Part shown: piece after piece, positions 19,871 through 37,427 of the stretch
Layout: each line of letters starts with the position of its first letter
Numbering within the stretch: the stretch's first letter is position 1
NCBI GenBank assembly: GCA_963755915.1
Contig: CAVWLP010000002.1
Coordinates: 2,464,001 to 2,528,000, forward strand
Source: an uncultured Phycisphaerales bacterium
GTDB lineage: Bacteria; Planctomycetota; Phycisphaerae; Tepidisphaerales; Tepidisphaeraceae
Length of the DNA: 64,000 nucleotides
Reading direction: 5' to 3'
Made by a program: the position numbers and the translations under genes
Notes under the pieces: generated by a model
Database searches by the model: none
Told to the model about the DNA's origin: nothing
What the model saw: only the letters and a program-made list of their open reading frames with translations

Positions 19871-21619
19871 TCAGGCGATTGTCTTTTCGACTTCGTCGAT
19901 TCCCGCTGCCCCTTCGGCGATAAGGCGGTAGCCGCTCTCCTGGAGCGAGATGTATCCCTCGGGGGTCAGCGCCTTCTGGCAGGCTTCGATCGTGGGGCTC
20001 TTCAGGATAGTGTCGCGGAGCTTGGGCGTGGCGACGAGGATTTCAAATATGCCCCGGCGGCCGAAGTGACCCGTGCCGAAACATCTCTTGCACCCCTTGG
20101 GGTAGTAAATCTGCTTCACATTGGCGACGCCGGCCGCGGCGAATTTCTTCTGCTGATCGGGCGTGACCGGCTTGGCGACCTTGCAGTGAGGGCAAAGCTG
20201 GCGGACCAGTCGCTGGGCGACGCAGACGTGAAGGCCGGAGGCGACGACGTATGGTTCGACGCCCAGGTCGAGCAGCCGGAACATGCCGCTGATCGCCTCG
20301 CGCGAGTGGACGGTGCTGAAGACCAGGTGCCCGGTCATGCCGGCCTGCACGGCAACGCGCGCGGTTTCGGCGTCGCGGATCTCGCCGACGAGAATGACAT
20401 CGGGGTCTTGCCGCAAAACGCTGCGGAGGAGCGCGGAGAAGGAATTGCCCTGGGCATCGTTCACGGGAATCTGGGTTACGCCCTCAAGCTGGATTTCGAC
20501 GGGGTCTTCGATGGTAACGACGTTTCGCTGGCTGATGTCGATGTCGCGGAGAATAGCGTAGAGCGTGGTGGTTTTGCCTGAGCCGGTGGGGCCGCAGACG
20601 AGGATCATGCCCGCGTCCTGCTCGGCCGTGCGGCGCAGAATTTCCCGCGCCTTGGCGGGGAGCTGAAGGTCATCGATGTGCAGTGGAGCGTTGGCGGTAT
20701 CGAGAACGCGGACGACCAGCTTCTGCCCGTGCATTGCGGGGGCGAAACTGACGCGATAATCGACCCGGCGATCGACAAGGCCCTGTGCCGTTTTCGTGGG
20801 GACTTTGGCGCTGAAGTGGCCCTCCTGAACGATGTTCCGCTGGGCGATATCGATGTCGGACACGACCTTGACGGCGGACAGGACCTTGACGCCGAGCTCT
20901 TTGTTGAGATGGGCCGCATCGACCATGAATCCATCGACGCGGATGCGGACGTGAACATCGTCCATCTTCGGCTCGACGTGAATGTCGGTGGCCCGGCTGC
21001 GGAAGCAGACCAGCAGGATGAGGCGCAGGATGTTGATCGCTTCGCCGACGTCTTTCTTGGGGTCGGCGGGATAGGCGAGCTTGCCGCGGGCGTTGATGAG
21101 GGCGATCTGCCGATCGGTGAAGGTGCGGTCGGCAAGCGCATCGGCGCGTTCGCGGAGCTGGCGTTCGTATTCGTTGGCCGGTTCGGAAGCTGGGGCAGAG
21201 GCTTTCTTTTCTTCGTCCTCGGATTCCTCACCATCGACGACGAGGTCGGCCAGTTCGGACATTGCAGTGTCGGCGGCCTGCTTGCTGGGGGCATTGCCCG
21301 TCACGCGGGCGACGGGGACGATGAGCTTCATCTCCGTGCCGCCGATTTTGATGACATCGCCGGCCGCCATGGCGGCCTCGCCGCGCAGGGATTTGCCGTT
21401 CAGGAGCGTTCCGTTGCGCGATTCCAGATCGCGAATGCGCACGCCCTCGGCGTCTTTTTCGATGACGCAGTGGAACCGGCTGGCCAGCGGTTCCTCGATG
21501 ACCAGCAGGTTGGTGAAGTTTCTACCGATGGTCAGCGCGCCGGCTTCAAGCGGAACCTGGCGTGTTCCCTTCGAATCCTTGATTTCGAGGTACGAGCTTG
21601 GAACGGCGTTTTGGGGCAT
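19871..21619 (-). CDS. FHA domain + GspE/PilB-family secretion ATPase
   Basis: FHA 'IGR..SR.H..D..S.NGT', Walker A GPTGSGKTT, TIEDPVE, LRQDPD, GEIRD, TGHLVFSTVH, tetracysteine motif. Confidence 0.9.
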   Translation of the reverse strand: MPQNAVPSSYLEIKDSKGTRQVPLEAGALTIGRNFTNLLVIEEPLASRFHCVIEKDAEGVRIRDLESRNGTLLNGKSLRGEAAMAAGDVIKIGGTEMKLIVPVARVTGNAPSKQAADTAMSELADLVVDGEESEDEEKKASAPASEPANEYERQLRERADALADRTFTDRQIALINARGKLAYPADPKKDVGEAINILRLILLVCFRSRATDIHVEPKMDDVHVRIRVDGFMVDAAHLNKELGVKVLSAVKVVSDIDIAQRNIVQEGHFSAKVPTKTAQGLVDRRVDYRVSFAPAMHGQKLVVRVLDTANAPLHIDDLQLPAKAREILRRTAEQDAGMILVCGPTGSGKTTTLYAILRDIDISQRNVVTIEDPVEIQLEGVTQIPVNDAQGNSFSALLRSVLRQDPDVILVGEIRDAETARVAVQAGMTGHLVFSTVHSREAISGMFRLLDLGVEPYVVASGLHVCVAQRLVRQLCPHCKVAKPVTPDQQKKFAAAGVANVKQIYYPKGCKRCFGTGHFGRRGIFEILVATPKLRDTILKSPTIEACQKALTPEGYISLQESGYRLIAEGAAGIDEVEKTIA

Positions 21620-21656
21620 GGGGTCTGGTCGTTACATATTATAGGAAAGAGAAGAA

Positions 21657-21739
21657 ATTGCCGAATGCCGATTGCCAATTGCCGAATGGGGGAAGGGCCG
21701 CTCCTTCATTCGGCAATTGGCAATCGGCATTCGGCAATA
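21657..21739. repeat. Inverted pair of ATTGCCG heptamer arrays
   Basis: attgccgaatgccgattgccaattgccgaatg ... cattcggcaattggcaatcggcattcggcaat; single arms also at ~14077 and ~42610. Confidence 0.8.
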
Positions 21740-21742
21740 TCC

Positions 21743-22552
21743 CTAATCGCCGCTCAGCTTCCATTTCGGACATTGGCCGAAGAATCGGCACGGATTCTTG
21801 TAAAAGATCTCACCGGCTTCCTTCTCGCCGTGTCCCCGACGGCGGTATTCCAGGAGGGTGTCGATCAGCATGTGGGGGTGGGAGTCACCCCAATCGCTGG
21901 CGCTGTTAACGCATATTTGCTGGGGGCCGTATTGCTCGAGGATATCGACGCCGCGCTGGGGAGTGACCTTGCTGACGGGGTAGATGGTCAGGCCGCACCA
22001 GAAGCCGGCGTCGCGGGCCATCTGGATGGTGTGCTCTTCACAATGGTCGATCAGGACGCGATTGGGTTGGATTCGCCGGTCGTTCTTAAGGATGTCGCAG
22101 ATGATGGCGGTGCCTTTGTGCTTGTCCTGAAGGTGGGGGGTGTGAATGAGAATGAGCTGGTTGGTCCGCGCGGCGAGGTCGACCTGCTCTTCGAAAATGG
22201 CAATTTCGTTCAGCGTATTTTTATGAAGGCCGATCTCGCCGATGCCCAGGACGCGGGGGTGATCGAGCAGCGGGGGGATCAGGCGGATCACCTTGCGGGC
22301 CAGCGAGACGTTTTCCGCTTCCTTGGCGTTGATGCAGATCCAGGAGTAGTGGTCGATCCCGAAGCGGGCAGCGCGGCGCGGTTCAATGTCGGTAAGATGG
22401 TGAAAATAATCCGAAAAACTCGACGCGGAAGAACGGTCAAACCCGGCCCAGAAAGCCGGCTCGGAAACGGCCACCACGCCGCTGCGGGCCATGAAGAGGT
22501 AGTCATCCGTCGTGCGGCTGACGCAGTGAATGTGCGGATCGATCAGCTTCAT
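21743..22552 (-). CDS. TatD-family metal hydrolase (EboB-like)
   Basis: DPHIH, EPAFW, GEIG, IHTPH, DH, NSASDWG. Confidence 0.85.
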   Translation of the reverse strand: MKLIDPHIHCVSRTTDDYLFMARSGVVAVSEPAFWAGFDRSSASSFSDYFHHLTDIEPRRAARFGIDHYSWICINAKEAENVSLARKVIRLIPPLLDHPRVLGIGEIGLHKNTLNEIAIFEEQVDLAARTNQLILIHTPHLQDKHKGTAIICDILKNDRRIQPNRVLIDHCEEHTIQMARDAGFWCGLTIYPVSKVTPQRGVDILEQYGPQQICVNSASDWGDSHPHMLIDTLLEYRRRGHGEKEAGEIFYKNPCRFFGQCPKWKLSGD

Positions 22553-22794
22553 TTCGCCTGGGACCTGCGGTAGGGCGGCGGGGGAGTCTGGTCGGAGAAG
22601 ATCATCTGGACGCGACGGGCGCGATCGGGAACCGCATCAAGTAAGACGGAGATCGCCTCTCGAAGTTGCAGGAGGCGCGGGTCGGTGGCGGCGGATTGGG
22701 CCCGGTCGAGACGGTCCAGGTCGGCGGCGAGGGAAAGACACCGCCAGCGCATTTCCAGAAGTACTTCGTCGGAAGCCATTTTTTCTCTCGGCAT
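22549..22794 (-). CDS. Small conserved hypothetical protein
   Basis: 'EMRWRCLSLAADLDRLDRA ... RARRVQMIFS'; stop overlaps the TatD start (ATGA coupling). Confidence 0.65.
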   Translation of the reverse strand: MPREKMASDEVLLEMRWRCLSLAADLDRLDRAQSAATDPRLLQLREAISVLLDAVPDRARRVQMIFSDQTPPPPYRRSQAK

Positions 22795-22892
22795 CGCATA
22801 ATTGTACGGCTGCTGACTGGAATTCGCATTTTTGGGCGTTAAAATAGTCCGGTCGCATCGGGGATCTTTGCGATTTCCGAGGCGGCGGCGCG

Positions 22893-23193
22893 AAGCCGAG
22901 TACTCCCGGATTTGCGCAACGGCGCCCGGAAAGGCGTTTCCGGGATTGGGAGCCCGGCGGCGAGCGAAAGCTCGCGACGGCTTGGCAAAACCTGTGATGG
23001 ATGCCGCCGGATTTGGTGTGCGTCCTGACGAAGAAACTGGAGGTGATCCGTGACCTATTCTGACTGTACGTGTGGGCTGCTGTAAGCAGCTTTCGCGGGT
23101 GAGACTCCCGCGATCCACGCAGCTGCTTCATGCAGCTCACAGCAGCTAAAGACTGCGAGAAGCCCGGCTCAAAAGGCCGGGCTTTTCTTTTTC
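22893..23193 (+). ncRNA. Candidate structured RNA with extended SD and an 11-codon ORF
   Basis: Multiway junction 22893-22983, GGAGGTGATCC at 23039-23049, ORF 23050-23085, nested stem with a UGAGA T-loop-like hairpin, and a terminator. Confidence 0.5.
23160..23193 (+). terminator. Intrinsic terminator
   Basis: aagcccggc/gccgggctt stem followed by ttctttttc. Confidence 0.85.
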
Positions 23194-23241
23194 GTTGCCT
23201 CATACGATATAAACAGGGCGATCGCGTACTGAGTCGACCCG

Positions 23242-23507
23242 ATGAGAAAATCAAAAAGGAAAACGAGACCGCTCACGGCGAAAGAATTTGACGCCATGCA
23301 CGATGCCGGCGTGGATTTGGCGGAAATGTTGACTGGTCCAGGGGCCGGCCCGTTAACCAGCAGATTCGCCGGGTAAACTTGGATTTTCCGCAATGGATGA
23401 TCAACCAGATGGACCGGGAGGCAAAGCGCCTGGGGGTAACGAGGCAATCGATCATCAAGGTCTGGATCGCGGAACGATTGGAATCGCTGCCAAAAAAGAT
23501 TGCCTGA
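23242..23507 (+). CDS. CopG/BrnA-type antitoxin (frameshift; absent from ORF track)
   Basis: 'AKEFDAMHDAG.D ... RRVNLDFPQWMINQMDREAKRLGVTRQSIIKVWIAERL'. Confidence 0.8.
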
Positions 23508-23510
23508 CGA

Positions 23511-24702
23511 TCATTTCAAGTCGATCTTTCCCCACGCCCGCCACATATATCGCTGTGCGAATTCCCAGATGACGACCTTTTTGGCGGTGAGGATAGCGGG
23601 ATTGCTCGCGAGCATTTGCCTCGGCGCGTCGATGGGGCCGGCGTATACGCCGATGACCTGGACTTTTACACCCAGGCGCGACATCAGATCGTCAACGAAG
23701 CCGCAGCCCTGCTCGGAAAAGTAGAGCGAGAAGCTGTCGCCCACAAGCAGGATGGGCGCGTCATTGCCGGCGATGAGGGGTTTGCCGTCTCTTTGCAGGA
23801 CCTGGGGACTCTGGAAGTGGTTTCGCGGATACTTTGTGTTTCCCCAGCCCATTGAAAGATTCTGGGCCAGATCCCCGGCAAAATCGAGCGTGTACTGAGA
23901 ACGGAAAAACTCGGCCTTCGGCATGTCCGGGGTCAGCGGTCGAATATGATCGGAAACAATATCGGCGACGAGCAGGCGGCCGGGGAGGGACCAATGCGTG
24001 TCGGTGGGTAGATAAATGGGCTGTTGGGCGCTGAGGCGCGCCTGCCAGAGCGCCGGGGCGAGATCGATCACATCGATGCCGGCGCTACGCGCGTGGTTGA
24101 GCCAGTCGGAAAATCCGGGGGGAACCGCCGGGCCGAGCGAAAGGCGGTAGTCGGTGGCAAGCTTGTCGGGATAGATTTCGAGCTTGTCGGGGATGGGGAG
24201 AAGAACCAGGCGGATGTTGCGCGTCGAGCTGTTGTTTGAGGCTCAAAATCGCGGGCATGATGGTTGAAGCGGGGGAGGGGGCGGGGTCGTTGAGCGAGAA
24301 AGAGTTGTAGGGCCGAAGTTCTTCGTCGCTGAAGAGCCAGCCGTCGCGGGCGAGTTGCACGCCGCGCGGGGGGATGATCCCGCCGGTCATTGCGTGCCAA
24401 AACGTGTGCCGCACCCAGCGGTCGAAACGCGATTGCTGGGTGAGATTGCTTTCGAACTGCTTGAGTGAATCCGCGGTGGGAAATCGCGCCAGCAGGTCCT
24501 GAAACTCTGATCGCCCGAGGACCGTCTCGTCGTACCAGGTTTGATAGATGCCGGGAATGCAGATGCCCAGTAAGAAAAGAATGGCAACGGCAAGGGCAGT
24601 GGTACGCCCGATCTGGCCGGCCCCGGCGTGTGGAACCTTGATCGCCGGTACGTCGGTCGGCACATTTGGGCGAGGGAACGGAGATGGGTGATGGCTCGAC
24701 AT
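23511..24702 (-). CDS. AlgJ/AlgX-like SGNH O-acetyltransferase (frameshifted)
   Basis: 'DGWLF', 'P.P.K..IYP', 'TDTHW', 'GDSFS', 'VIWEFAQRY'; adjacent to an MBOAT gene. Confidence 0.8.
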
Positions 24703-24709
24703 TTTCGCT

Positions 24710-26237
24710 CTAGAACCTGAAATAGAGGAAAGGCGTGTAAGATCTTACGCTGAGGGTCAGGATCGCCGCCAGGAATACAACCAGGGAGAACGCGGCGACC
24801 GCCGGGGTGACGCGCTTGGCCAGGTCCCACGTCTGGATTCCAAAAAATGCGATTGCCGCGGCGGCGAAAAGCTCGAGGAGATGGGGATACGTCCAAAGCC
24901 CGAAATGGGCAATTCTGTCAACCGGGGTGGCAGCCACGCCGAAGCGGAACATGGTGGATAGATAATTACCCGCATCGCGCAGATCAGAGGATCGGAAAAA
25001 GACCCAGGCGATGCAGACGATGAGAAACGTGAGGCCGACACGGACGAAGTGGGGGTGCGCGCCAGTAGAGATTTTTCTTGCCGAGCATTCGCTCGAAGGC
25101 CAGCCAGCCGCCGTGAATTCCGCCCCAGACGACGAAGGTCCAGGACGCTCCGTGCCAGAGGCCGCCGAGGAGCATGACGATCATGAGATTGCAGTAGGTT
25201 CGAGCGGTCCCCTTGCGGTTTCCGCCGAGGGTGATGTAGAGGTAATCGCGCAACCAGGTCGAGAGCGAAATATGCCAGCGGCGCCAGAATTCGGTGATGC
25301 TGGAGGATTTATAGGGCGCATCGAAATTTTTGATGAACTCGAAACCGAACATGAGGCCCAGCCCGATCGCCATGTCGGAATATCCCGAGAAGTCGAAGTA
25401 AATCTGAAAGGCGTAGCCCAGGGCGCCAAGCCATGCGTCCGACCAGACAGCGGGATGTCCGTTGAACGCGAAATCGGCGATTTCGCCCATGCTGTCGGCG
25501 ATGAGGATTTTTTTGGCGAAGCCGAGGCAGAGGAAAATGATCCCGCGGCTGAATTTTTCCAGCGTGTGGTGCCGCCGATACATCTGCGGCTCCAGGTCCT
25601 GGAAGCGAATGATGGGACCGGCGACGAGATGGGGGAATTGCGAAATAAAGCAGGCGAAGGTGAGCAGGCCATGAAGCTCGACGTCGAGCGAAGTTTCGCC
25701 GGGCTTGAAATGGCGGCCCGCGGCTTCGGCGGCGCGCTTGGCGGCGACGCTCGATGAGCGGGCCTTGCCGCGATAAATATCCACCAAATAGCTAATGGAT
25801 TCGAAAGTGTAGAACGAAATCCCCACGGGAAGAATCACCTGCAAAATCCTGTAAGGCTCCAACCCAAAAGTCCGGCGGATGGTGTTGAGATTGTCCTCGG
25901 CAAACCCGAAATATTTAAACGCGAAAAGAATCCCCAGGCTGTTGCATAGCGAGATCACCAGAAAGAGCTTCTTTTGCCAGTGCGGAGGCCTGGGATCTCC
26001 CTGCGCGTCGGCGTGCCAGCCGAAGGGATGCCAGTGTCCGTCGATGAGATTTCCACAGCAGAAATCAACGAGGGTCGACCAGGCCAGGAGCAGCACAAAC
26101 CACGGATTGGCCCAGCCGTAAAAGAAATAGCTGAGCAGCGTCAGTACGCCAAGGCGCCAGGGAGCGCGGGCGGCGTAGTAAATGACAATCGCCAGCGGGA
26201 GAAAATAAAATATGAAAATGTGGGAGCTGAATACCAC
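24710..26237 (-). CDS. MBOAT O-acyltransferase (AlgI/DltB family; frameshift ~25050)
   Basis: 'LPVGISFYTF', 'LVAGPI', 'FQIYFDFSGYSDMAIG', 'EFWRRWHISLSTWLRDYLY', 'GLWHGA', C-terminal 'PFLYFRF'. Confidence 0.93.
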
Positions 26238-35454: not shown

Positions 35455-37427
35455 GTGCGTCAGTGAAACCGGTTTTGTCTTGTGAACTGAAAGGAGTTCA
35501 CCATGGAATGACCCGTTAGCCGTGTAGCCGCCCGGGCGTGACGACGGAGCAATCGGTCGCGCGAAGCCCCGGAAGGCGAAGGCGCGAGCCGTAGCGTTAA
35601 GCGAACCCAAACCAGCCTCGTTACGCCAATGGGAGTGGCCAACCCGTCAGAGAGGGCCAAGCCGGCGCGGACGATGAAGCAGCGGGTGCGAGCAATCGTC
35701 CGGCTCCTCGGGGTCGATGGGGACGGCGCGTGCCGACAGACAAGATCGGGAACTGAGAGACCCCACGCATCGTTGTGCGGCTCGTTGAAAAGACATAACC
35801 AAGGGACGGGAAGCGTGGGGAGTCGGATGGGCTCATAGTAGCTGAGAAGCGGGGTAATGCCCGTGAGCGGAGGCGAAGCCTGCCGCGAGCCAAGGAGCCC
35901 TGACGGTATCGAGCGGAAGTAAGAAGAAGAGAGGCCCGCTTGCAGGGACAACCTGACAGTACGGATGATCCGACAGACTTGCCGGAGCACCTGAGGGTGA
36001 ACTCCAGGGGTCTGCCGGGGAAAGTCTTTCTTCTGAGACAGAAGCTATACCTCAAAGCCAAGCGGGAACCGGGGTTTCGGTTTTACACCTTGTACGACCG
36101 GATCTGCCGGCGCGATGTTCTGGAAGCGGCGTGGGACCGGGTGTCCGCCAACGGCGGGGCGCCCGGCTTGGACGGGGTGAGCATCGAGAAGGTGCAAAAC
36201 TCCGAGCACGGCGTCAGTGGATTCCTGAGCGAGATCGAAGAATCGCTCAAGACCCGCACCTACCGCCCGCAGCCGGTGAAGCGCGTGTACATTCCCAAAG
36301 CCAACGGCAAGCGGCGTCCATTGGGCATCCCCACGATCCGAGATCGCGTGGTGCAGATGGCGGTGCTGCTGCTCATCGAGCCGATCTTCGAGGCGGATTT
36401 CCTGGACTGTTCGTATGGATTCCGTCCCGGTCGCTCGGCTCACGATGCGCTGGAGGCGATCAAGCAAAACCTCCAGCAGGGCCGAAGGGAAGTGTATGAC
36501 GCGGATTTGCAGTCGTACTTCGACACGATTCCCCATGAGAAACTGATGGCGTGTGTCCAGAAGCGGATCACGGACGGAAGCGTGCTGAAGCTGATCCGGA
36601 TGTGGCTGAAGGCGGTGATCGTCGAAGAAGGCGAGAAGCCCGGCGATCCACCGAAAGTCACCCGGAGCAAACAGGGAACGCCGCAGGGCGGAGTGATCTC
36701 GCCGCTGCTGGCCAACCTATATCTGCACTGGTTTGATAAATTGTTCCACCGATCCGATGGCCCGCATCGCTGGGCGAACGCCCGGCTGATCCGGTACGCC
36801 GACGACTTTGTCATCATGGCAAGGTATATAGGCCCTCAGATCAAGCAGTTCGTGGAACGCACGCTGCAAGGCCGGTTTGATCTGACGATCAACACCGACA
36901 AGACCCGCACGGTGAAGTTGAAAGAGCCGGGCGAAAGTCTGAACTTTCTCGGGTACAGGTTCCGGTACGACCGGAGCCTGCAAGGCGGGCCGGGGCGTTA
37001 TCTGAACCTCTGTCCTTCGAGCAAGTCGATGCAGCGTGAGCGGGACAAATTGCGGGAGATGACCGGACCCGAAGCAGGCTTTGTGCCCATCCCGGCGTTG
37101 ATCGTACAGATCAACGAGCACCTGAGAGGATGGGCCAACTACTTCGGCAAAGGCTATCCGCGCAAGGCGTTCCGTCAGATCAACCGATTTGTGCAGGAGC
37201 GACTGGAACGACACCTTAAACGTCGCAGCCAGCGTCCGTTCCGTGTGCGCGGAGCGAGGAGCTGGTACGAACAGTTGCAGCGTCTGGGCCTCATCAGCCT
37301 GCGACCTGTTCCGACCGTGAATGCTTGAGAAGAACAATACCGTGAGAGCCGGATGCGGGAAACCCGCTCGTCCGGTTCGAAGAGGGAGAGCTGAGCGGCA
37401 ATCGGGTCGTTCAGTTCTCTACTCTAC
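35455..37427 (+). mobile_element. Group II intron, complete (~1973 nt)
   Basis: 5' GTGCG; domain V GAGCCGGATGCGGGAAACCCGCTCGTCCGGTTC (AGC triad); domain VI ending ...CTCTAC; the exons rejoin to a REP arm. Confidence 0.93.
35940..37328 (+). CDS. ltrA: Group II intron reverse transcriptase/maturase, no obvious endonuclease domain
   Basis: 'APGLDG', '[11 protein letters not shown]', '[17 protein letters not shown]', RYADD, X domain 'GWANYF'. Confidence 0.96.

Follow-up and report, generated by a model that had tools for sequence, protein, structure and literature searches.

The 64,000-nucleotide (nt) stretch of DNA analysed here (the window) comes from an uncultured Phycisphaerales bacterium of the family Tepidisphaeraceae (assembly GCA_963755915.1, contig CAVWLP010000002.1, positions 2,464,001 to 2,528,000 of the forward strand). 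At 22852-23193 it contains a conserved, independent, expressed, structured RNA gene of ~340 nt, in which an exact complement of the 3' end of the 16S ribosomal RNA (rRNA) is followed directly by an open reading frame (ORF) of 11 codons. Comparison of the homologues suggests that this is a ribosome-engaging RNA in which the act of translation may toggle a four-segment switch, the peptide being a by-product. We would give this reading a probability of about 0.5.

A first-pass annotation, made from the letters of the window, had described a structured RNA of a class that it could not name, with an 11-nt complement to 16S rRNA, a GTG-initiated ORF, nested stems, a T-loop hairpin and a terminator. 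Each of these elements is present where it had been placed, including the stems gtgggctgc/gcagctcac and aagcagct/agctgctt. The searches that the annotation had called for bear it out further: homologues occur across the Phycisphaerae, several helices covary (P1, P2/P3 and the T hairpin), RNA-library contigs of four studies match 22868-23159, and Rfam gave no family.

Elements of the locus

22817..22845 (+): putative promoter, placed by conservation; -35 CTGGAA at 22817-22822, 17-nt spacer, -10 TAAAAT at 22840-22845
22852..23193 (+): whole RNA gene, ~340 nt; 5' end predicted from the -10 box, 3' end set at the terminator
22925..22944 (+): P1 hairpin, stem CCCGGAAA / UUUCCGGG with compensatory changes; GGCG tetraloop at 22933-22936
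22952..22986 (+): P2/P3 arm, GCC.GGC.GCGAGC-GAAA-GCUCGC..GCU.GGC, which covaries; GAAA tip at 22966-22969
22999..23025 (+): P4 hairpin from the minimum-energy fold, directly 5' of the ribosome site
23039..23049 (+): anti-16S element GGAGGUGAUCC, which complements the 16S 3' tail without mismatch over 11 nt
23050..23085 (+): micro-ORF of 11 codons; GUG start at 23050-23052, UAA stop at 23083-23085
23064..23145 (+): proposed 3' switch domain, whose alignment is fitted by two folds
23076-23080, 23086-23090, 23122-23126, 23132-23136 (+): segments a1 (GCUGC), b1 (GCAGC), c1 (GCUGC) and d1 (GCAGC)
23064-23067 and 23142-23145 (+): CUGU and GCAG, which may pair to close the 3' domain
23093..23113 (+): T-loop-like hairpin tcgcggg-TGAGACT-cccgcga, a covarying 7-bp stem with the 7-nt loop UGAGACU
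23116..23120 (+): unpaired CACGC between b1 and c1, conserved (as ACG in distant relatives)
23157..23193 (+): intrinsic terminator, a 13-pair stem at 23157-23187 and then a T run

The complement of the 16S rRNA tail

The organism's own 16S rRNA 3' end reads ...GGATCACCTCCTTTCT and its 16S gene ends ...GCGGCTGGATCACCTCCTTTCT; the 11-mer GGAGGTGATCC at 23039-23049 is therefore the exact complement of that tail, and the claim of an 11-nt complement holds when checked against the genome's own gene. Among 63 distinct sequences of the RNA, the contiguous complement measures 11 nt in 42, 12 nt in nine, 13 nt in three, 14 nt in four, 15 nt in two, 17 nt in two and 10 nt in one. It is extended to 15-17 nt in some families, where GAAAGGAGGUGAUCCAG matches 17 nt of the tail, and GGAGGUGAUC is retained in 19 of the 22 distant or divergent homologues found with a covariance model. 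On the alignments, the anti-16S stretch is the best-kept feature across the whole class. The predicted duplex energy is -21.7 kcal/mol for the 11-mer of the window and -32.4 kcal/mol for the 17-mer, against -8.7 kcal/mol for GGAGG alone. Genome-wide counts of stepwise longer complements drop about fourfold per added base, so the organism makes no general use of extended Shine-Dalgarno sequences.

An internal anti-Shine-Dalgarno sequence that might mask the ribosome site was sought upstream of P1, and the duplex energies there were no better than those of shuffles (z mostly -1.4 to +1.5 in the 32 sequences shown of 33, with one outlier at -4.3). The recurring UGCGGAUCUGG is itself a small hairpin.

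The 11-mer occurs seven times in the 6.6-Mb genome, where ~4.6 copies are expected from base composition, so by itself it is within chance; it is the conservation in every homologue that exceeds chance. One of the seven copies falls on the antisense strand of the 16S gene, and coding sequences contain most of the rest. The only other copy positioned like a ribosome site, at C2:1642256 (+) of genome G000 and outside the window, lies directly 3' of a terminator-like hairpin and 4 nt 5' of an ATG that opens an ORF of at least 132 amino acids.

The micro-ORF

The micro-ORF of the window reads GTG ACC TAT TCT GAC TGT ACG TGT GGG CTG CTG TAA (MTYSDCTCGLL), with its GUG 6 nt past GGAGG. In the 63 distinct sequences the start codon always lies 6-7 nt past GGAGG and is GUG in 60, UUG in two and AUG in one. 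In 53 of them the frame runs from this start into a stop inside the loop of the a1:b1 hairpin, and the stop may be any of the three (UAA 28, UAG 19, UGA 6). The ORFs that stop in the loop are 9, 10, 11, 18, 23 or 25 codons long, and the hairpin insertions found within the ORF, of 21, 42 and 36 nt, are all multiples of three. Among the other ten sequences, eight are shifted by one frame, seven of which stop at UGA in the loop of the next hairpin, the T hairpin, and two have their stop at the edge of the loop. The retention of the frame from the start to a stop borne by the loop argues that ribosomes really translate the micro-ORF. Six further distinct loci fell outside the regular-expression count; by eye, the stop is in the loop in two of these (L019 and L119) and in the T-loop in L080, L104 reads on, and L106 and L115 are ambiguous. 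Besides these six, two loci were left uncounted: L037, a duplicate of L019, and L055, truncated by a contig end.

A mini-hairpin of ~21 nt, GCGGAGGGC-NNN-GCCCUCCGC, in which a GGAGGG arm pairs with an anti-Shine-Dalgarno-like CCCUCC arm, is seen inside the micro-ORF in one or two tandem copies, always in frame, at loci L004, L009, L012, L015 and L017. Other species (L014 and L049) have a similar mini-hairpin at another site, after segment d1.

Within the Tepidisphaeraceae the peptide is fairly constant (M-T-[NYH]-x-D-C-x-x-G-L-L). Distant relatives keep a complement of 10-17 nt, a start codon 6-7 nt past GGAGG and an ORF of 9-12 codons, the sequence of which is unrelated from family to family (MESTKRRLL, MVGTIGELL, MDIGNRRWLP, MTIGEQTRSLR, MSDCIKGLHS).

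Folding of the RNA

Upstream of the ORF, the RNA has a structured 5' domain of ~190 nt with covarying pairs. In an alignment of 44 sequences of this domain, the GGCG tetraloop of P1 is invariant while its stem changes in a compensatory manner (pair 12:21 is AU in 24, CG in ten, GC in six and GU in four; pair 11:22 is GC in 38 and CG in five). The P2/P3 arm also covaries (pair 45:284, GC 35 and AU 7; pair 46:283, GC 31, GU 6 and AU 3). In most genera a sub-domain of ~100 nt stands in for the GAAA tip of this arm; it is conserved, and the helix that closes it covaries as well (pairs 55-58 with 259-262). The sequence of the predicted P4 varies among species, and relatives have a self-complementary stretch of other sequence at the same place. 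As a whole, a region of 316 nt has a fold energy that beats 100 of 100 shuffles (z = -4.38).

The 3' domain, aligned in 45 sequences, can be drawn in two ways. With two adjacent hairpins, a1:b1 and c1:d1, 98.9% of the cells are paired; with the nested stem a1:d1 and b1:c1, which is the stem that the first-pass annotation had seen, 96.3% are paired. Two covarying pairs, 144:164 (AU 24, GU 11, GC 7) and 102:150 (AU 26, GC 9), are specific to one fold each, and in neither fold analysis did any of 500 shuffles reach the observed covariation score. The hairpin c1:d1 has no U run after it, the terminator being a separate hairpin 20-90 nt further 3'. Between b1 and c1, the A91, C92, G93 and C94 of the unpaired CACGC are invariant in the alignment, and ACG is retained in distant homologues.

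The T-loop hairpin is real in the Tepidisphaeraceae: its stem covaries (pair 111:134, CG 23 and UA 20; pair 116:129, GC 23, AU 14 and CG 2) and U1, G2, A5 and U7 of its loop are invariant in the 45 sequences. In most relatives from other families it is absent or unaligned, some stretches there being unaligned, so it is not a defining part of the RNA. Together with the unpaired CACGC and the ACAGCAGUAAGCACACUG tail, it is a candidate read-out surface.

Expression and independence of the gene

The RNA-library contigs span 22895-23159, 22868-23061, 22868-23084 and 22870-23064; the 265-, 194- and 195-nt matches are exact and the 217-nt match has a single difference. Altogether 12 RNA-library runs contain part of the stretch. 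One of the libraries amounts to only 22.6 million letters and still gave the exact 265-nt contig, suggesting that the RNA is abundant. Contigs of this kind cannot show strand or ends, and their depths, up to ~3400 on the conserved core, sum many organisms and have no ranking value. In these runs, which were chosen for containing the RNA stretch and compared with no DNA run, 22650-22857 and 23170-23400 have zero contig cover; the uncovered flanks are a weak hint of the limits of the transcript, and the shared starts (22868, 22868 and 22870) a weak hint of its 5' end.

Upstream of the gene, alignments of relatives show two conserved blocks, TTGAAA/CTGGAA and GATAAAATA, set 17 nt apart. One relative has TTGACC, ~18 nt and TATACT, and in distant families TTGAC(C) stands ~300 nt before the ribosome site. 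This conservation points to a promoter at 22817-22845. At the other end, a GC-rich hairpin with a T run closes all 44 complete aligned 3' domains; in the window it stands ~110 nt past the end of the micro-ORF. The genes on either side vary. Downstream lies a convergent ilvC in ~21 loci and EF-G on the same strand in ten, with other genes elsewhere; upstream, a TatD-like gene is divergent in 40 of 63 loci of the family, and the loci of the distant families have no neighbour gene in common.

The first-pass annotation had seen no long ORF beneath the transcript. This calls for a caveat: three ORFs overlap it, two on the minus strand (189 and 205 amino acids) and one on the plus strand (73 amino acids). 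None of the three has a Pfam match. The aligned homologues are separated by large indels, many with a length not divisible by three, which respect none of these frames, and the ORFs are therefore read as GC-rich shadows.

Comparison with known RNA families

With Rfam 15 at gathering thresholds, the whole window gave no match except a group II intron 12 kb away. At E values up to 10, the region 22700-23300 gave only weak matches carried by the terminator; these were leader families such as Thr_leader (21.9 bits against a threshold of 55). No family was matched at E up to 0.05 in the loci of ten relatives, and ARAGORN found no transfer RNA (tRNA) or transfer-messenger RNA (tmRNA) in the window. 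The tmRNA of the genome lies elsewhere (C2:2332877-2333262, 137.8 bits), and RNase P and signal recognition particle (SRP) RNA score above threshold at other loci of the same genome. The 6S model has no match in the window or in the whole genome. In 14 genomes that also carry the RNA (for example G135, G156, G028, G044 and G095), 6S RNA is found at separate loci, so the RNA is not 6S. The literature on Tepidisphaera and Phycisphaerae RNAs and on anti-Shine-Dalgarno and hibernation RNAs, supplements not being covered, held no description of such an RNA. The family is thus absent from Rfam 15 and from the literature looked at.

Two further candidates were set aside. A riboswitch was rejected, as no known aptamer class in Rfam is found in the window or in the ten relatives' loci and the downstream gene is not conserved. 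A type I toxin mRNA encodes a hydrophobic peptide of ~19-60 residues and has an antisense RNA partner; the peptide here, which is the part that was compared, has 9-12 residues and is mostly polar and variable.

Several known systems share features with the RNA. tmRNA (RF00023) has no Shine-Dalgarno sequence and no start codon, and gains entry to the ribosome by way of a tRNA-like domain that ends in CCA; it also has pseudoknots. Like it, the RNA described here is structured and probably abundant, measures ~350 nt and has an ORF of ~10 codons that stops within the loop of a hairpin, and in the Tepidisphaeraceae there is also a T-arm-like hairpin, a likeness limited to that family. However, the RNA has a Shine-Dalgarno sequence and start codon in all homologues, and ARAGORN and the Rfam scans of the window, which include RF00023, were blank. 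Dual-function RNAs of the RNAIII and SgrS type encode peptides of 26-43 residues or more that are conserved as proteins. The likeness to these is an independent transcript that joins a structured RNA to a small ORF: here too there is a terminator and a putative promoter of its own, the latter placed by conservation and not called by a scan, and the RNA contigs fall within 22868-23159. The peptide here, though, has 9-12 residues and shows no conservation from family to family. The mccA minigene of microcin C precedes its maturation operon, while the bar minigenes of phage lambda act through peptidyl-tRNA drop-off on ORFs of 2-3 codons. Both resemble the RNA in having a very short ORF, a strong ribosome site and a short terminated transcript, and in that ribosome binding itself matters, but neither has a large conserved folded domain or an anti-16S stretch of 10-17 nt.

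Ribosome-dependent attenuator leaders, and in particular rnTrpL, offer another likeness. In these a short translated leader ORF ends in the first of the alternative segments (1:2, 2:3, 3:4) and a terminator follows, and rnTrpL, the liberated attenuator of Sinorhizobium meliloti, shows that such an RNA can persist as a trans-acting small RNA (PMC6614838). In the RNA described here, an ORF with its own ribosome site similarly ends in the 1:2 (a1:b1) region in 53 of the 63 distinct sequences. In contrast to an attenuator, the RNA lies upstream of no conserved gene and its 3:4 hairpin (c1:d1) is not the terminator; there are no cognate regulatory codons, the peptides of different families sharing only the Leu encoded by helix segment a1, and there is a Shine-Dalgarno complement of 10-17 nt together with the ~190-nt covarying 5' domain. 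The STAB-SD of the Bacillus thuringiensis cry3A mRNA is a complement of the 16S 3' end in the 5' untranslated region of a long mRNA; it directs no initiation and serves to hold the 30S subunit (PMC4113751). A complement of the 16S 3' end is common to both, being 10-17 nt in the RNA described here, where it would likewise hold a 30S subunit and not serve the expression of an ordinary gene. The RNA differs from STAB-SD in having a canonically spaced start codon, a micro-ORF whose frame is kept and a terminator ~110 nt further on, with no downstream gene.

Distribution among planctomycetes

The RNA is single-copy in its own genome. By BLAST it is present in 26 of 36 Tepidisphaeraceae genomes, including all 12 of the same genus (a count that includes the unpublished genome G014). 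An exact-pattern scan with one genome per species returned 43 public contigs, 42 of them titled Tepidisphaeraceae, Tepidisphaerales, Phycisphaerales, Phycisphaerae or Planctomycetota. A complete copy (L032, JBLNDH010000285.1) lies on a 2.5-kb contig of a metagenome-assembled genome labelled Bacillota; this is probably a binning error, the other matches all being from Phycisphaerae. A covariance model built on the 3' domain found one match per genome in 13 of 20 sampled Tepidisphaeraceae genomes and one match each in 18 of 130 genomes of other Phycisphaerae families (f4 1/8, f5 1/20, f7 1/7, f9 2/2, f12 2/7, f14 3/4, f15 3/4 and f18 5/6). It found none in ~144 sampled genomes of other planctomycete classes. 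Absence in these scans means absence with the 3'-domain model and its filters.

What the RNA may do

In the mechanism that we propose, the folded 5' domain (P1 to P4) would precede an exposed 'super Shine-Dalgarno' sequence that can pair with the 16S tail over 11 nt, and over as many as 17 nt in other families. A 30S subunit would dock on this sequence, and the ribosome would translate a few codons and terminate within the region of GCUGC, GCAGC, GCUGC and GCAGC. These four segments may pair either as two adjacent hairpins or as one long nested stem, and the occupancy of the ribosome would decide which. The signal would then be the act of translation and not the peptide, so that the RNA might read out or buffer the supply of initiation-competent ribosomes. 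Binding of the 30S subunit, actual translation and switching between the folds are what we infer here. A bolder form of the idea, which we regard as tentative and rather doubtful, is that this is a class of RNA that clamps the 16S 3' tail with a duplex of 10-17 bp and holds the ribosome on a throw-away frame of 9-12 codons; this would make it an RNA-based factor for ribosome parking, hibernation or capacity sensing in soil Phycisphaerae, with cycles of initiation and termination on the RNA itself setting the fold of the 3' domain.

A number of observations weigh against translation as the signal. The 43 pattern-derived loci were chosen for containing the anti-16S element, and the covariance model includes it too. 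An ORF of ~10 codons stays open by chance fairly often, and the count of 53 in 63 overstates the evidence, related sequences not being independent. Nor is the frame kept without exception, eight of the 63 being shifted, and in L029 and L084 the ORF reads on further. The regular expression required the start to begin with G, A or T, so that a CUG start was not countable. Within the Tepidisphaeraceae the codons ACC, GAC and UGU, like the third base of NAU, show zero synonymous change while neighbouring positions alter the amino acid, the constraint there being on the RNA sequence. The case for a four-segment GCUGC/GCAGC switch in which both folds are real is thin, at one covarying pair for each. 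A simple promoter consensus scan did not call the promoter site of the window.

Two other explanations account for part of the same evidence. The RNA might be a clamp that is not translated, holding the 16S tail in the 30S subunit or the 70S ribosome as a sponge, a hibernation or protection factor or a STAB-SD-like self-stabiliser, with the ORF incidental. We consider this rather unlikely, though it would fit the anti-16S stretch being the single best-conserved feature, its length of 15-17 nt in some families, a duplex energy of -21.7 to -32.4 kcal/mol that is far above ordinary Shine-Dalgarno pairing, and 'codons' that within the family are constrained as nucleotides and not as amino acids; the exact 265-nt contig from so small a library, which suggests abundance, would fit too. 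A pure clamp, however, has no need of a conserved start, frame and stop. The start codon always keeps its canonical spacing and varies only to other start codons, the stop varies among all three stop codons, and the frame into the loop survives whole-codon changes of length and in-frame insertions. The RNA might instead be a micropeptide mRNA with a product of 9-12 residues and the 5' domain as its regulatory leader, possibly a riboswitch. The canonical ribosome site and start codon, the retained frame and the fairly constant peptide of the Tepidisphaeraceae speak for such an mRNA, and D-C and G-L recur in some other families, as in MSDCIKGLHS and MTNSDCTRGLRV. Yet these recurring residues map to RNA helices, GGGCUGC being segment a1 and GACUGU the proposed closing helix, and the frame-shifted variants swap the whole C-terminal half. 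Synonymous changes are lacking where a constraint on the peptide would permit them, and the loci examined have no conserved neighbouring gene for maturation or export. A micropeptide product is also argued against by the peptide sequence, which is not retained across families. We therefore find an mRNA for a micropeptide improbable, and on these comparisons the peptide itself is probably not the product. The first-pass annotation had offered a ribosome-binding or ribosome-sequestering RNA or a micropeptide system; the structured RNA with its conserved anti-16S element stands, and a micropeptide system looks the less likely part.

A cis-acting leader or attenuator of the downstream gene would likewise have an ORF resembling that of a leader peptide, four segments that can pair in alternative ways and a terminator, and the sub-threshold Rfam matches are leader families. 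Those matches are carried by the terminator only, however, and the downstream gene is unconserved and often convergent; in L002, a very close relative (97% identical), the sequence diverges directly past the terminator. As c1:d1 lacks a U run and there is no shared regulatory codon, such a leader is very improbable and close to refuted, and the candidate was rejected for lack of synteny. The remaining thought, a known housekeeping RNA (tmRNA, 6S, RNase P or SRP RNA) in disguise, takes its appeal from the short ORF with its stop in a hairpin loop and the T-arm-like hairpin, which recall tmRNA, and from the blank result of the 6S model in this genome. It can be regarded as already refuted: neither ARAGORN nor Rfam finds such an RNA at the locus or, for Rfam, in those of the ten relatives, tmRNA, RNase P and SRP RNA lie elsewhere in the genome, and 6S RNA lies at other loci in the 14 carrier genomes.

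Neighbouring genes and other features of the window

Upstream of the RNA gene, a divergent operon at 19871-22781 (-) encodes an ORF of 59 amino acids without a Pfam match, a TatD-like hydrolase and an FHA-domain T2SSE/PilB-type ATPase. Downstream, at 23242-23507 (+), a CopG/BrnA-like antitoxin gene is apparently split by a frameshift into a 44-codon N-terminal ORF (23242-23376) and a C-terminal part in another frame, which has a weak CopG_antitoxin match (E = 5e-4, 21.2 bits against a cut-off of 28). No partner toxin gene was seen between the split gene and the terminator of the RNA. Genes for an AlgX-like SGNH hydrolase and an MBOAT acyltransferase follow at 23511-26237 (-), as in polysaccharide O-acetylation systems. 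The group II intron RNA lies at 35493-37427 (+), with D1-D4 at 35493-35723 (RF02005, 51.2 bits) and the catalytic 3' domain at 37344-37427 (RF00029, 53.6 bits).

Significance

On the most conservative reading, the RNA is still a new class-wide family that is missing from Rfam 15. Tepidisphaera has cultured members and the element is short, so the RNA is directly testable. A parking or sensing RNA that clamps the 16S tail, if true, would be categorically new. If ribosomes do dock and translate here, the sequence on which ribosomes dock would be the core of an abundant bacterial RNA, a natural case in which the translation of a meaningless mini-frame is the signal. The RNA would then offer a way into the question of how soil planctomycetes that grow slowly measure or store their capacity for translation. 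It would also bring a large family of structured RNA, with four or more covarying helices, to a phylum in which RNA biology has hardly been explored.

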